Shown: piece after piece, positions 40,240 through 49,814 of the stretch | Position numbering within the stretch: the stretch's first letter is position 1 | How the letters are laid out: each line of letters opens with the position of its first letter | Assembly (NCBI GenBank): GCA_965221165.1 | Contig: CBDCRP010000002.1 | Coordinates: 704,001 to 768,000 of the forward strand | DNA length: 64,000 bases | Origin: a bacterium | GTDB lineage: Bacteria > UBA8248 | Reading direction: 5' to 3' | Notes under the pieces: generated by a model | Databases searched by the model: none | What the model was told of the DNA's origin: nothing | Seen by the model: the letters and a program-made list of their open reading frames with translations, nothing else | Translations under genes and position numbers: made by a program

Positions 40240-41436
40240 ATGAGCGGAAGTATCGCCGGAAAAGTCGCCATCATCGGCGCGGGCATCACGAAATTCGGAG
40301 AACTCTTCGAGCAGAGCTATAACGATCTCGTGGTGGAAGCCGCCTTCAAGGCCTATCAGGATGCGGGCGTGAGCGGCGGCGACATCGAGGCTGCTTGGCT
40401 GGGCACGTATCTGCCGCTCGGCTGGGGTTTCGACGGCACGGGCGGACCCTCGCTTGCCGAAGCGCTGAACCTCTACCCGAAACCCGTCTCCCGGGTGTCG
40501 AACTACTGCACGACGGGCATGGAAGCCGTCCGCATGGCGGCGATGGCCGTAGCCTCGGGCATGCACGACGTCGTCCTCGCCGTAGGCGCCGAGAAGATGC
40601 GCGAAGTCCCTCCCCGGGGCAGCCTGGTGGCCCAACACGTTGAAAAACTACATCCTATGTATTCGAAAGGCCGCACGGCGCCGGGCAGCTTCGCCGTTCT
40701 GGCGAGGCGGTATTTCGAGGAATTCGGCGCGGACAAAGAGGATTTGGCCGAGGTGGCGGTGAAGAATCACTACCACGGGAGCCTGAACCCGCGCGCGCAC
40801 TTCAGAAAAGAGATCACCAAAGAACAGGTACTGAAAGCCCCGCCGGTGACCGAACCTTTGGGCCTATACGATTGCTGCCCCACGACGGATGGCGCCGCGG
40901 CGATCGTTCTCTGCCGGGCGGACCTGGCCGAGAAGCGCTTCGCCAAGAAAGACTACGTCCTGATCGACGGCATGGGGCTTTCCTGCGCGACGGGCTACAT
41001 CACCACGGCGTTCAACCCCAGGTTCAACTTCATCGGCTTCGAGGCCACCCAGGAGGCCGCGCGCCAAGCCTACGAGCAGTCCGGCGTAACGAACCCCCGC
41101 GAGGAGATAGACGTCGCGGAAGTACATGATTGTTTTACGATTACGGAGATTCTGAATTACGAGGACCTGGGCTTCGTCGAGAAGGGCGAGGGTCCTGATT
41201 TCGTGAAAAGCGGCGCGAGCAGGCTCGGCGGCGAGCTGCCCGTGAACACCTCGGGCGGCCTCAAGAGCTGCGGCCATCCCATCGGCGCAACGGGCGCGCG
41301 CGTGGTGGCCGACCTCACGCACCAGCTCTTAGGGTGCTGCGGCGACCGCCAGGTGAAGGGCGCGAAACGAGCGCTCGGCCACACACTCGGCGGCCCGGGT
41401 GCGGTCTCCAGCGTGTTCGTTTTGGGCAAGAATTGA
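40240..41436 (+). CDS. SCP-x-type thiolase / acetyl-CoA acetyltransferase
   Basis: VSNYCTTG, VKNHYHG..NP.AH, DCCPTTDGAAA, EVHDCFT, VNTSGGLKSCGHPIGATG. Confidence 0.92.
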   Translation: MSGSIAGKVAIIGAGITKFGELFEQSYNDLVVEAAFKAYQDAGVSGGDIEAAWLGTYLPLGWGFDGTGGPSLAEALNLYPKPVSRVSNYCTTGMEAVRMAAMAVASGMHDVVLAVGAEKMREVPPRGSLVAQHVEKLHPMYSKGRTAPGSFAVLARRYFEEFGADKEDLAEVAVKNHYHGSLNPRAHFRKEITKEQVLKAPPVTEPLGLYDCCPTTDGAAAIVLCRADLAEKRFAKKDYVLIDGMGLSCATGYITTAFNPRFNFIGFEATQEAARQAYEQSGVTNPREEIDVAEVHDCFTITEILNYEDLGFVEKGEGPDFVKSGASRLGGELPVNTSGGLKSCGHPIGATGARVVADLTHQLLGCCGDRQVKGAKRALGHTLGGPGAVSSVFVLGKN

Positions 41437-41449
41437 GAAAATAATGAAA

Positions 41450-41471
41450 CCCCCGGGCGCGCGCCCGGGGG
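41450..41471. terminator. Perfect 22-bp GC palindrome after the thiolase gene
   Basis: CCCCCGGGCGCGCGCCCGGGGG; no clear U-tract follows. Confidence 0.45.
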
Positions 41472-41599
41472 AATTTCACCCCCGCAACTCCCCGCATATC
41501 CGCGCATTCGCCGTTATCGCGGGCATCGCTGGCCATGGCAGAATTCCCCTGCGCTGCGATGCGGCGGCGTCTTTTCGACCCTCCCAAAAGTATTCATTT

Positions 41600-41787
41600 A
41601 TTTATCGAAAGACCCCGGAAATTTATCTAATTTTATGGGATTTAGAGACATAAGCAGTTCCCATTAGACATGAAATCCCGCTACCATATTGATATTATTA
41701 TGAATATCCACTATTCCCAATCTCGCTTAGAACCCTCCTCATATGGTATGTAATCAAAACGAAAGCGGATTCATTAAAACTCCTGCG
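41600..41787 (+). repeat. 188-bp AT-rich direct repeat, copy 1
   Basis: Matches 49627-49814 with 5 mismatches by hand alignment. Confidence 0.95.
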
Positions 41788-42391
41788 GGGCCATCTGGCG
41801 GAGTTCGGAGTCGTCGCCCCCCAAGGCCGAGCCCACCTCGCGCGGTTGGCGTCGGCCGTTGCCAATCCGGGTTCGGGGTTGCCCGAGGCGGTCCGCGAAC
41901 TGGGCGTGGTTCTGCTCGCGCATATAGCCGGCCTGAAGGAGAAGATACAGGAGTTGGAGAGGCGACTCCGCACGAGCGCGTACGAGGATGAGGAAGCGAG
42001 ACGACTGATGAGCATTCCGGGGGTCGGTCCGGTCTGCGCGTCGGCGATCCAGGCCTTCGCCCCGCCGATGGAGAGCTTCCGCCGGGGGCGGGACTTCTCC
42101 GCCTGGCTCGGTCTCGTGCCGCGACAGCACTCGACCGGAGGCAAGCCGCGACTGGGTAGGATATCGAAGATGGGCCGGCGCGACGTGAGGCGGTTGTTGA
42201 TCACGGGCGCGATGAGCGTGGTGCGCTGGGCGGTCCGGCGAGGCGCGCCCCCCGGATCGTGGCTGGCCCGGATGCTGGCGCGTAAGCCCAAGATGCTGGT
42301 TGCGGTGGCGCTGGCCAACAGGATGACGCGCATCGCCTGGGCGCTGATTACGAACAGAGAATTCTACCGGGAGCCCGCGCCGGCCGCCTGA
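41783..42391 (+). pseudogene. IS110/IS1111 family recombinase, 5'-truncated
   Basis: LRGHLAEFGVVAPQG...LMSIPGVGP...FSAWLGLVPRQHSTGGK.RLGRISKMG...VALANRMTRIAWAL; the N-terminal DEDD/RuvC domain is absent. Confidence 0.9.
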
Positions 42392-42661
42392 GCGGCAGGC
42401 GAGCGGAGCACGGCGGGAATGTGAGCAGGCCGAATGAGGAGGTAGGGGCGAACGGTCATTGAGACGGGGTCGGGAAAACCAGGACCAGATTTTGGAGTTT
42501 TTCAAGCTCGCACGGTCGATTCGGACCCGATCCTCGCATTTCCATACGGGCCGCGGTAATAGTGAAACGCCGCAATTGAGAGGCCGTATACACGAATGAG
42601 TCTGACCATAACGCACCAAAACCTCCGGGCCAACGCTTGCATTCTTGGGCGCGTCCATACA
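42392..42661 (+). ncRNA. IS1111-type right non-coding end, probable bridge/seek RNA
   Basis: ~270-nt structured non-coding region after the recombinase; stem GGGGTCGGG/CCCGATCC, GGGCC..GCGG..CCGC..AGGCC block, ending GCGTCCAT as in IS1111 sub-terminal repeats. Confidence 0.7.
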
Positions 42662-43925
42662 CAAATCTGGTGTATGGCCGTCTCGAATCCAGCGGCCCTC
42701 CCGCCCGTTTCTTTTTCCTCCACCCCATCGATGAACCTCACGTCGGCGATCACCTCGGCCAGATGATGGAAGCCGCGTAGTCGGCGCCATCGCTTCTCGG
42801 CGCTCATGGCGAGTTGATGCACAAGGCTCAGCGCCGTCTTCTCGCTCAGGCAGTACCTCGTCTTCGCCGTTCGCAAGCGGATGGTGGCGAAGGTCGATTC
42901 GATGGGGTTCGTCGTCCGAAGACTCCGCTAGTGCGCCGCCGGGAAGTCGTAGAAGGCGAGCAACTCCTCGCGGTCCCCCGCCAGGCAATCGGCGGCTTTC
43001 GGGTACTTCGCCTCCCAGGTGGCACAGAAGCGCTCAAAAGCCTCCTTCGCATGCGCACGGGTTTCGGGATATACCTCGGCCAGGGCCGACCACAACCCCA
43101 GCCCACCGTCGCCCACCGCCAGCTTCGCCGCCCTCACGCCCCGGTCCCGCAGGCTCAACAGCACCGCCTCCAGCTCTCCTTCGACTCCCTGAACCCGGAT
43201 TCCAGGGCCAGGAAGCGCTTGCGGCCACGCGCGTCGCAGCCCACAACCACTAGCAGACAACGCCGCTCCTCGCCGCGCACGTTCACGTAGATCCCGTCCG
43301 CCCACAGATACACGAACTCCTCGCCACCCCAGTCCCGCTCGCGCCACTGCGCGTACTCACGCTCCCAGCCGTCCTTGAGCCGCGCGACGCTCGCCGGGGA
43401 CAATCCCTTCACCGACTCGCCGAACAGCGCCGTGAGCGCTTCACCGAAGTCGTTCGTCGATACCCCCTTCAGGTACAGCCACGGAATCACCGCCTCCATA
43501 CGCCTCGTCTTCTTCAAATACGGCGGCAGCAACTCCGAGCGGAAGCACCGGCCCGCGCCCGACCTGTCCCGCGTCCGCGGAACCCGGACACGCACCGGAC
43601 CCACACCCGTCAACACCTCCCGCGACGGCAGGTAGCCGTTGCGAACCACCGCGCGTCGACCTTGCGCGTCACGGTCGGCCGCATACCCTTCCAGAAAGGC
43701 CTCCAACTCCGCTTCCACCGCCTGGCGGATGATTCGTTGCGCGCCCTCGCGCACCAGTTCGCTCAACTCGTCCCGTAGGGCTGGATTCCGGAAAGGAATC
43801 GTCGTATCTTCTCTCATGGTGGAGCATCTCCTGTGTGCTGAATGACCGGGCTTTGGACAACCCTATTTCAGCAGGATGCGACGCCTTCTTCAATTCAGCC
43901 CATACACAACTTCTGACAGTAACTC
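42662..43925 (-). mobile_element. IS256-family element, decayed
   Basis: RNGY, VPRTRDR, LYLKGVSTNDF, YLWADGIY, GDGGLGLW, TTNPIES motifs spread over frames: frameshift ~43170, TAG at 42930-42928, apparent internal deletion. Left IR GAGTTACTGTCAGAAGTTGTGTATG; right IR only partly present (CATACACCAGATTTG). Confidence 0.9.
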
Positions 43926-43939
43926 GTCGGGGAGTGCCC

Positions 43940-45685
43940 ATGGATCCAGGCTGCGACCGAATCACCACCGAGGTCATCGCGCACCGCTTCGCCGCCGCGG
44001 CCGACGAGATGATGGCCACCCTCGTCAAGACCGCGTATTCCCCGAACATCAAGGAGCGGCGTGACTGCTCGGTCGCGATCTTCGACACTGCGGGCAACCT
44101 CCTCGCCCTGACCGCCATCGCCCCCCTTCACCTGAGCTCGCTCCTCGGCCTCGTGGAGAACATCACCCGGCGTTACCCCCTCGACCGCTTTCGCCCCGGC
44201 GACGGCTTCCTCACGAACGATCCGTACGTGGGAGGCGGCTCGCACCTGCCGGACCTGACGCTCGCAAGGCCCGTCTTCTTCGATGGCCGGCCGGTCGCGT
44301 TCGTCGCCAACATCGCCCACCACTCCGACATCGGCGGCAAGGTGGCGGGGAGCGAGAGCGCCGACTGCACGAGCATCTTCCAGGAAGGGCTGCGGATCCC
44401 TCCCGTCAAGCTGCTGGACGAGGGGGAACTGTGCACCGACATGCTCGCGTTCGTGCTCCTCAACTCGCGCACCCCGCGCGAGCGCGAGGGCGATCTGCGG
44501 GCCCAGATCGCGACCAACGCCATCGGGGTCCGCCGGGTGCAGGAGTGCTTTGCTCGCTTCGGAGCCGATAGCGTGCACCGGGGCGCGAGAGCGCTCCTCG
44601 ACTACGCCGAGTCGCGCACTCGCGCCGAGATCGCGAGGCTGCCGGACGGAACCTACGAGAACGAAGAAGTGGTCGACAACGACGGCGTGGCCGACGGCAT
44701 CGTTCGCCTCCGCGTCAAGATCACCATTCGCGTCGATCGCATTCACTTCGACTTCACGGGCACCGACGGGCAGATCGCAGGGGCCCGGAACATGCCGCTC
44801 GCGGCCACCCTGTCCGGCGTCTACTACGCGGTCAAGGCGGTGACGGACCCGGCGCTGCCGCCCAACTCCGGGTACTTCCGCGCCATCGGCGTCACCGCGC
44901 CGGAAGGCACGGTCGTCAACTGCCGCCCCCCCGCCGCCGTCGGGGATCGGGGCGCGACCGGCAACGTGCTCGGCGACCTGCTGCTGGGCGCGCTCGCCGA
45001 CGCTGCGCCGGACCGGGTGATGGCCGGCTGCGGTCCGCTCCACGGGCTTATCTTCAGCGGCGTCGACCCGCGCCGGAACGAGTACTTCGTCGACTACGAG
45101 ACCTACGCGGGAGCGTCCGGCGCGCTTTCCGCGCTCGACGGAAAAGACGCGGTCCGGGTCCACGTTTCAGGCGCGGCCAACCTGCCCATCGAATCCGTGG
45201 AGCAGGAGTTCCCGCTGACCGTCGGCCGCTACGAGCTGATCGCCGACTCGGGAGGCCCCGGACGGCATCGCGGCGGCCTCGCGACGCGCCGCGACGTCAC
45301 CATCTGGGCGGAGCGGGCGAGGCTCGCAGGCCGCGGACTGCGCCAATCCCGAGGCGCGTCCGGGCTGTTTGGCGGAAGTTCGGGGTGTCCCGGCGTCTTC
45401 GTTCTGGACCCGGGCGGAAACCGCGAGACGAAGCTTCCGGGCTCGTTCTCGGAGCTCAAGGTGGACGCGAGAACGACGGTCCGGGTCGACACCCCGTCCG
45501 GTGCCGGCTTCGGCGACCCGTGGGAACGCGATCCGGAGAGGGTGCGCGACGACGTGGCCGCCGGCAAGGTGACCGCACCCGCGGCGGAGCAGAGCTACGG
45601 CGTCGCGCTCGTCCGCGGAAGCGTCGACGCCTCCCGGACCGCGGCCTTGCGGGAGGCCCGCCAAGATTCGAACCGTGGCGCCTGA
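43940..45685 (+). CDS. Hydantoinase B/oxoprolinase subunit (copy 1)
   Basis: TAYSPNIKERRDCS, NDPY.GGSHLPD, HHSDIGG, DSGGPGRHRGG, GAGFGDP.ERDPE.V..DV. Confidence 0.92.
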   Translation: MDPGCDRITTEVIAHRFAAAADEMMATLVKTAYSPNIKERRDCSVAIFDTAGNLLALTAIAPLHLSSLLGLVENITRRYPLDRFRPGDGFLTNDPYVGGGSHLPDLTLARPVFFDGRPVAFVANIAHHSDIGGKVAGSESADCTSIFQEGLRIPPVKLLDEGELCTDMLAFVLLNSRTPREREGDLRAQIATNAIGVRRVQECFARFGADSVHRGARALLDYAESRTRAEIARLPDGTYENEEVVDNDGVADGIVRLRVKITIRVDRIHFDFTGTDGQIAGARNMPLAATLSGVYYAVKAVTDPALPPNSGYFRAIGVTAPEGTVVNCRPPAAVGDRGATGNVLGDLLLGALADAAPDRVMAGCGPLHGLIFSGVDPRRNEYFVDYETYAGASGALSALDGKDAVRVHVSGAANLPIESVEQEFPLTVGRYELIADSGGPGRHRGGLATRRDVTIWAERARLAGRGLRQSRGASGLFGGSSGCPGVFVLDPGGNRETKLPGSFSELKVDARTTVRVDTPSGAGFGDPWERDPERVRDDVAAGKVTAPAAEQSYGVALVRGSVDASRTAALREARQDSNRGA

Positions 45686-49626: not shown

Positions 49627-49814
49627 ATTTACCGAAAAACCCCGGAAATTTATCTAATTTTATGGAATTTAGAGACATAAGCAGTTCCCATTCGACATGA
49701 AATCCCGCTATCATATTGATATTATTATGAATATCCACTATTCCCAATCTCGCTTAGAACCCTCCTCATATGGTATGTAATCAAAACGAAAGCGGATTCA
49801 TTAAAACTCCTGCG
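49627..49814 (+). repeat. 188-bp AT-rich direct repeat, copy 2
   Basis: Matches 41600-41787 at offset 8027; the last ~100 bp are identical. Confidence 0.95.

Follow-up and report, generated by a model that had tools for sequence, protein, structure and literature searches.

What is the 270-nt non-coding region at positions 42392–42661 of the 64,000-nucleotide stretch analysed here (the window: contig CBDCRP010000002.1, positions 704,001 to 768,000, from a bacterium of the lineage UBA8248), and why does it contain the reverse complement of the DNA next door? The region follows a broken transposase gene and abuts an IS256-family element that lacks the tip of its right terminal repeat. A first-pass annotation of the window had read it as the guide RNA of an IS1111-type insertion sequence (IS), programmed against the terminal repeat of the IS256-type element in which it sits. 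All strings and coordinates of that annotation were found in the window, including ACGGTC at 42512–42517 and GACAGT at 43915–43920, and the 9-mer ACCAGATTT is indeed the exact reverse complement of AAATCTGGT at the junction. From comparison with relatives of the element we conclude, with a probability of about 0.9, that 42392–42661 is the guide-RNA gene (seekRNA or bridge RNA) of an IS1111-family IS, with guides aimed at the right inverted repeat of an IS256-family element. The observation made in the annotation is confirmed, and its interpretation as RNA-guided targeting is supported. The copy in the window is a dead relic.

We searched 42 genomes of the family. Of the 22 other genomes of the genus, 13 contain relatives of the IS1111 element; the 19 genomes of other genera contain none. 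The window's own genome holds two further copies, both full length, of which L002 is 94% and L003 76% identical to the window copy; L003 encodes an intact 341-aa transposase and is the sole intact copy in this genome. Eighteen distinct non-coding regions, taken from the returned loci and aligned from 42443 (alignment A1), are well conserved except for two short hypervariable patches. Left ends were defined by a strict search for CGATGGG plus the subterminal repeat, which gave 13 copies with a left end. The clade of the window copy comprises five copies that are at least 94% identical (window, L002, L008, L009, and L010), and all five lie at the same point of an IS256-type right repeat.

These two patches are the guides, since across the relatives they match the flanks of the copy that carries them far beyond chance. 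The first patch (T guide) matches its own right flank in 18 of 18 relatives, whatever the target, as the reverse complement of the bases that come after the 3-bp right extension, with a longest exact match of 5–10 nt. The mean longest match is 7.3 nt for cognate pairs vs 3.6 nt for 306 non-cognate pairs, and none of 10000 flank permutations reaches the observed sum. The 9-mer singled out in the window occupies these same alignment columns and is therefore in guide position, as the annotation had supposed. The second patch (B guide) agrees with the final 5 nt of the left flank at 56 of 65 positions, counted over the 13 copies with a left end (0 of 10000 permutations). For this second guide the annotation had proposed ACGGTC. 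The match to the left flank held up, and the guide proved to consist of five variable nucleotides, ACGGT, followed by an invariant CGAT, rather than ACGGTC as such. This CGAT is identical to the first 4 nt of the element's left end (CGATGGG). Guide and flank also change together within one genome: in L002 the guide reads ACAAGATT instead of the ACCAGATT of the window, and the flank AATCTTGT instead of AATCTGGT.

The target of the window guides could be recovered in its uninterrupted form. The minus-strand neighbour of the guide-RNA region is a frameshifted IS256-type transposase gene (Transposase_mut, PF00872). With the model NF033543 (IS256 family transposase; cut-off 150) the window fragment scores 136.8 bits, below the cut-off, and an intact 422-aa relative in L053, a locus of the sister genome G026, scores 315.3 bits. 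Intact relatives of this IS256-type element are 1383–1387 bp long. Their repeats of ~26 bp are imperfect, and at least six copies have 9-bp target duplications directly next to both ends; these figures agree with the IS256 family, whose elements encode Mutator-type transposases of ~400 aa, measure ~1.3–1.4 kb, and produce target duplications of 8–9 bp. In the window, the left inverted repeat is 43900–43925. By blasting both ends against all loci we found the end downstream of the gene for the transposase in 23 distinct contexts. Four of them contain an IS1111 junction (window, L002, L010/L035, and L008/L009 with their duplicates). The other 19 are uninterrupted, and here the repeats take the form GAGTTAC.GTCAAATCTGGTGTATGG. 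The uninterrupted repeat in L053 reads GAGTTACGGTCAAATCTGGTGTATGG (top strand ACGGTCAAATCTGGTGTATG), letter for letter what had been predicted for the intact right repeat. Measured against the 15-nt target that the window guides specify, L053 has no mismatch, six other contexts have one, two contexts have two, and ten have three. The outer half predicted by the annotation, GACCGT, is thus present in L053. The window's own left flank is lost, and the orthologous full-length loci L008 and L009 are one base off, reading ACGGC vs ACGGT in the guide. At the other end of the IS256-type element the bases matched by the guides are different (for example CAGAAGTTGT), and this accounts for the targeting of one end only.

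The position of the insertion is equally well defined. The outer 10 bp of the IS256-type repeat sit directly left of the IS1111 copy in L002 (GGGTTACAGT) and in L008 and L009 (GAGTTACGGC), so the element entered the repeat 10 bp from its tip. When the flanks of L002 or those of L008 are rejoined, they restore a 26-bp IS256-type repeat with no gap and no duplication. The boundary 42661/42662 is fixed independently by contigs of two metatranscriptome runs, which align from 42662 on and carry GAGTTACTGT, the uninterrupted IS256 tip, immediately before it. Neither run yielded a contig over 42364–42633; contigs cannot show absence, and this result has no bearing on expression. A search for the junction pattern in genome contigs returned three stretches (L064–L066) with the same junction, guide-RNA region, and right chromosomal flank as the loci in G021, G022, and G026. 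The same pattern had no match in metagenome contigs, and a looser pattern matched six metagenome stretches, none of which has an IS1111 guide-RNA region upstream, so that these are chance matches.

The architecture of the region is that of a guide RNA. In the predicted structure (RNAalifold and pair counting over alignment A1) 98.6% of cells are paired, vs 24–45% when the partners are slid. The 9-bp stem that closes the loop containing both guides shows compensatory changes at column pairs 27/92 (AU, GU, GC) and 28/91 (UA, UG, CG). Downstream of this loop, the segment 42585–42595 is identical in sequence to the circle junction, and it covaries with the right end of the element in 18 of 18 copies through five variants (ATACA, ATGTA, ATGCA, ACATA, and ATATA). 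It is probably the donor-matching part of the RNA, an assignment that we call putative: the match is to one strand only, an 8-nt stretch, and its loop context is weak in the predicted fold.

The assignment of the element to the IS1111 family follows from its protein and from its ends. Read directly from the window sequence 41000–44400, the element occupies 41783–42661 and is 5'-truncated; homology of this remnant to the full-length copies L002 (94%) and L008 (99%) begins at query base 3–5. Truncation of the recombinase, as stated in the first-pass annotation, was borne out, since the remaining open reading frame (ORF) carries PF02371 only. This ORF is 76% identical over 179 aa to residues 161–339 of P0001, an intact relative of 341 aa, and in a tblastn search with an intact relative's protein the window copy aligned from ~aa 129 onward. 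P0001 contains both PF01548 and PF02371, in keeping with IS1111-family transposases, which have ~330–350 aa with a DEDD/RuvC domain at the N-terminus and PF02371 at the C-terminus, and scores 314.7 bits with NF033542 ('IS110 family RNA-guided transposase'; cut-off 140). The transposase matches the IS621 and ISCro4 chains in the C-terminal domain only (E 1.8e-9 and 6.4e-11). The IS1111 motif GL-P----S/TG is present in the window ORF as GLVPRQHSTG.

Full-length relatives are 1369–1381 bp long and begin with CGATGGG, followed by a 12-bp subterminal repeat. According to PMC11187229, IS1111 elements have subterminal inverted repeats of 11–13 bp, with extensions of 7 bp on the left and 3 bp on the right. 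This is the arrangement observed here. The 12-bp pair is ATGGACGCGCCC / GGGCGCGTCCAT; in L002 and L008, ATGGACGCGCCC is found 7 bp in from the left end. Thirteen copies have CGATGGG (7 bp) as their left extension, and on the right the extension measures 3 bp. The window retains the right subterminal repeat only, and the IS1111-like right end described in the annotation, GCGTCCATAC, ends at ~42660. The 270 nt of non-coding DNA between the stop codon at 42391 and the right end at 42661 are a further IS1111 trait. Upstream lie the end of a thiolase-like gene (41436) and a 186-nt repeat (41600–41785); the remnant itself starts at ~41783. The features are collected in Table 1.

Table 1. Features of the IS1111-family remnant, its guide-RNA region, and the adjoining IS256-family element (window coordinates; columns refer to alignment A1)
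Feature	Coordinates	Strand	Evidence
5'-truncated IS1111-family element; right-hand 879 bp of a ~1376–1381-bp element	41783..42661	+	DNA homology to L002/L008
Transposase C-terminal fragment, DEDD domain missing	41846..42391	+	PF02371 only, E 6e-24
Non-coding region after transposase gene; very probable seekRNA/bridge-RNA gene	42392..42661	+	82% mean column identity, 18 copies (A1)
5' arm of stem closing the target-binding loop	42466..42474 (GGGGTCGGG)	+	columns 24–32 pair with 87–96
T guide ACCAGATTT, complementary to top strand, right target half	42484..42492 (columns 42–50)	+	reverse complement of 42663–42671
Small inner hairpin GAG...CTC between guides; 42495–97 with 42507–09	42495..42509	+	columns 53–55/68–70, invariant 18/18
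B guide: 5 variable nt ACGGT (42512–16, columns 73–77) + invariant CGAT	42512..42520	+	left-flank match
3' arm of closing stem	42526..42535 (CCCGATCC = 42526–42533)	+	columns 87–96
Segment identical to circle junction, putative donor guide	42585..42595 (columns 147–157)	+	right-end last 5 nt + left-end CGA
Right subterminal inverted repeat GGGCGCGTCCAT (42647–58) + 3-bp terminal extension ACA	42647..42661	+	inverse partner in L002/L008
Inner 16 bp of IS256-family right inverted repeat; T-guide target 42663–71 (AAATCTGGT)	42662..42677	+	alignment to 19 uninterrupted contexts
IS256-family element without outer 10 bp of right repeat; frameshifts, ~100-bp internal deletion	42662..43925	-	PF00872 on two ORF pieces

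Several results weigh against an RNA-guided insertion into the IS256-type repeat. The covariance-model check that the first-pass annotation had suggested for 42392–42661 gave nothing: an Rfam scan of 41400–44000 at E up to 10 placed no family on this region, and the five matches listed elsewhere were far below gathering scores. Single-sequence folds of the region were no better than those of shuffles (z -1.0 and -0.5). In most stem pairs there is no variation, because the aligned sequences are close kin, and only three pairs vary on both sides. For the same reason the permutation figures given above overstate independence. Some of the guide matches are imperfect, as the T guides of L008–L010 match for 7 nt and then mismatch, and the B guide of L002 matches at 4 of 5 positions. 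All five clade copies are defective and no working example was found by tblastn with an intact relative's protein. By our count, only two independent insertions stand behind the five copies. All copies of the clade thus lie in the IS256 repeat, in a sample of two events.

Could the 9-nt complementarity be a coincidence, with the element having merely landed beside an IS256 copy? For the window taken by itself the question is justified: a reverse-complement match of at least 9 nt between the 270-nt non-coding region and the 16-nt flank arises in 85 of 20000 mononucleotide shuffles, so that a single window is not conclusive. Against this stand the 18 of 18 relatives in which the same columns match the copy's own flank at different targets, the second guide that matches the opposite flank, and the joint change of guide and flank in L002, which leave chance with a practically negligible probability. 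The order of events may also have been the reverse, in that an IS256-type element transposed to a site beside a resident IS1111 copy or into its end, or that recombination created the junction. IS256-type elements do insert into IS1111 copies: in genome G019 (contig C4, ~4129757–4131994) an IS256-type copy apparently lies between the halves of an IS1111 transposase gene (query 5–339 and 334–883). In L002, L008, and L009, however, the missing 10-bp tip is found beyond the IS1111 copy, on its far side, and a complete repeat results when the halves are joined. The IS1111 ends are complete in these three loci and no IS256 target duplication surrounds the IS1111 copy, which makes the reverse order most improbable.

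An explanation that dispenses with the RNA would have the transposase recognise the IS256 repeat through its resemblance to the element's own end, with the RNA match as a secondary feature. Such a resemblance exists, as CCATACAC (42655–62) is the inverse of GTGTATGG (42670–77) and the two form an 8-bp inverted repeat across the junction. Yet L011, L014, and L021 have the same right end (…CCATACA) and are inserted in unrelated flanks that match their own guides. Since siblings with the same right end insert elsewhere, the 8-bp inverted repeat is probably a coincidence. In PMC11187229, the RNA of IS1111 members is reported to be essential and reprogrammable by experiment, and we consider protein-directed targeting very unlikely. 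A different suggestion, compatible with our account of the origin of the junction, is that the relic is still in use: the orphan guide RNA would be transcribed and loaded on the intact L003 transposase (76% identical in the shared part), with the possible effect that L002-type copies are mobilised or that recombination is directed at IS256 ends. An intact 341-aa transposase does exist in the genome. PMC11187229 also describes ISPa25, which has a transposase only 46% identical to that of ISKpn4, is directed to the same target site, and comes with a predicted seekRNA of similar fold and the same target matches, from which the paper concludes that a seekRNA is not necessarily confined to very closely related transposases. 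The window copy, for its part, has lost its left end and any circle-junction promoter, and the genome has no intact IS256 right repeat to target, as both loci with this repeat are occupied (2/2). Continued use of the relic is unlikely.

We therefore return to RNA-guided insertion and describe how it would have proceeded. In a working copy the RNA would be bound by the element's DEDD transposase, and the internal loop closed by the stem 42466–74/42526–35 would present the two guides. The T guide would pair with the top strand right of the insertion point and the B guide (ACGGT, then CGAT) with the bottom strand left of it. Together the guides specify ACGGT^CAAATCTGGT, which corresponds to positions 6–20 of the right terminal inverted repeat of the 1.38-kb IS256-family element. 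Recognition of the circular donor probably falls to the segment 42585–95, a repeat of the right and left ends in joined form. The element entered the IS256 repeat in one orientation, at a point 10 bp from its tip, and thereby split this repeat. A later rearrangement, which now borders on a 186-nt genomic repeat, removed the left 500 bp of the element, the 10-bp IS256 tip, and the original left flank. By analogy with ISEc11, ISPa11, ISKpn4, and IS621, the RNA would be produced and would be bound by the transposase, and its pairing would drive recombination. We also infer that the IS256 copy was disabled by the insertion.

The surrounding DNA indicates how often the insertion occurred and how the copies decayed. 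To the right, the chromosomal flank of the window carries hydantoinase-type genes and is 99% identical to that of the loci in G021, G022, and G026. This common flank indicates one ancestral insertion that was inherited. L002 lies elsewhere in the genome, with an IS256 remnant 80% identical to that of the window and IS1111 parts that are 94% identical; these differences lead us to regard L002 as the product of a separate, independent insertion, the second one, made by a retargeted variant. The defects differ from copy to copy: the window copy survives from ~aa 129, L010 from aa 204, L008 has two frameshifts, L009 has one, and L002 has one frameshift and a codon 3 that reads as stop. Of the two ISs for which the annotation had called for intact copies, the IS256-type element is intact in L053, among others, and no intact member of the IS256-targeting IS1111 clade was found. 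Left of 41783 the window has nothing in common with the 8-kb loci around the orthologous junctions (L064–L066), from which it follows that a rearrangement removed the IS256 tip together with the left part of the element. The edge of this rearrangement coincides with the end of the 186-nt repeat.

The 186-nt repeat itself occurs in the window as two copies that are 97% alike (41600–41785 and 49627–49812), has 19 matches in the genome, and ends in ...GTAATCAAAACGAAAGCGGATTCATTAAAACTCC. A diverged copy lies just beyond the truncated IS256 remnant of L002 (minus strand, ~800–910), and the repeat, which may be a MITE or the end of a further element, has no Rfam match. The IS256-type copy of the window lacks ~97–100 bp near 43052–43065 that are present in all other copies, including orthologues that are 98–99% identical. 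At this break the query coordinates overlap by 11–14 nt, which suggests a deletion between short direct repeats. We also considered that the clade might wipe out IS256 in its hosts. This idea was rejected, because G026 keeps the intact IS256-type copy L053 with a perfect, unoccupied target.

Across the genus, the guides of related copies point to other kinds of target. Three copies, L012 (G006), L015 (G013), and L016 (G005), interrupt the non-coding region of a different IS1111 copy, directly ahead of its donor-matching stretch (…GAGAGGC^CGGATACACGA…). Their T guides GTATGTCCG, GTGTATCCG, and GTACATTCG each match a different sibling's version of this stretch, and to judge from these matches the three look like a clade aimed at the guide-RNA gene of their relatives. 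Seven copies of the L003 type (L003, L017, L018, L022, L026, L027, and L030) lie in AT-rich palindromic repeats such as GGACATATATGTCC and CGCATATATGCG, a target that resembles the repetitive extragenic palindromic (REP) type targets known for other IS110-family elements. One may speculate that a single IS1111 lineage has repeatedly re-aimed its guide RNA at mobile DNA, that its members act as hyperparasites which disable competing transposons as well as their own relatives, and that the guide/target pairs record an arms race between insertion sequences. We regard this scenario as tentative and, on balance, doubtful.

This wider pattern in the genus is a more interesting lead than the window copy. 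The window copy is dead, the principle is not new, and no intact IS256-targeting member of the clade was found among the genomes searched. What the locus offers is a clean natural case: genomes alone sufficed to recover the two guides, the point of insertion, and the target in its uninterrupted form. It adds IS256-family ends to the landing sites of IS1111-type elements, which already include attC sites and REP sequences as well as the repeats of Tn21 and IS1384. As the IS256 family is widespread, such a guide could in principle mark or disable its members. The ~18 guide variants with known flanks could also help to derive pairing rules; in this set the T guide comprises 5–10 nt, the donor segment 8 nt, and the B guide 5 nt together with another 4 nt from the left end.

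The mechanism proposed here was described in 2024 for seekRNA and bridge-RNA elements. The novelty lies in the target family, and the principle of aiming at the end of another mobile element was already known. IS4321 and IS5075 reportedly target the terminal repeats of Tn21-family transposons, as Partridge and Hall are said to have described in 2003. Like these two, the element described here belongs to the IS1111 family, has subterminal repeats, and occupies a fixed site, in a single orientation, within the terminal repeat of another element. Unlike theirs, which is the 38-bp repeat of the Tn3/Tn21 family, its target is the 26-bp right repeat of an IS256-family element; its host belongs to an environmental genus, and all copies found are defective. 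A second precedent, attributed to Muller, Lauf, and Herrmann in 2001, is IS1383 of the IS110 family, which is said to integrate specifically into the inverted repeats of IS1384. This, too, is an IS110-family element aimed at the inverted repeat of another insertion sequence, with the difference that the target family here is IS256, whereas a table in PMC5141477 lists IS1384 under the IS5 family.

The first-pass annotation had called IS256 ends a target class not known to be described. Given the two precedents this applies to the family and not to the principle: we found no paper that names IS256 ends as a target of IS110 or IS1111 elements, and the term IS256 has no occurrence in PMC11187229, while the supplementary tables of PMC11187229 and PMC11208160 (~300 ISfinder elements) could hold a case.

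The closest mechanistic counterparts are ISEc11/ISXne4, ISPa11, and ISKpn4 (Siddiquee et al. 2024, PMC11187229). In their seekRNAs, as in the other IS1111 seekRNAs of that paper, the top-strand match lies 5' of the bottom-strand match and the matches overlap in the target. The element of the window shares with them the non-coding region downstream of the transposase gene, the stem that encloses a T match 5' of a B match, and the meeting of the two matches at the insertion point. It differs in its target, and it is known from sequence alone. The bridge RNA of IS621 (Durrant et al. 2024, PMC11208160; structures such as 8wt6) likewise serves an RNA-guided DEDD recombinase and has separate target-matching and donor-matching segments. 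Unlike the RNA described here, that of IS621 lies in the left end of the element and has the reverse order of guides; for the IS1111 group the same source reports the donor-matching bases in a multi-loop instead of a simple internal loop. Finally, close IS1111 relatives have been naturally retargeted through changes in the guides alone (PMC11187229), and the radiation in the present genus comprises at least three kinds of target, namely IS256 ends, the non-coding regions of sibling IS1111 copies, and palindromic repeats.

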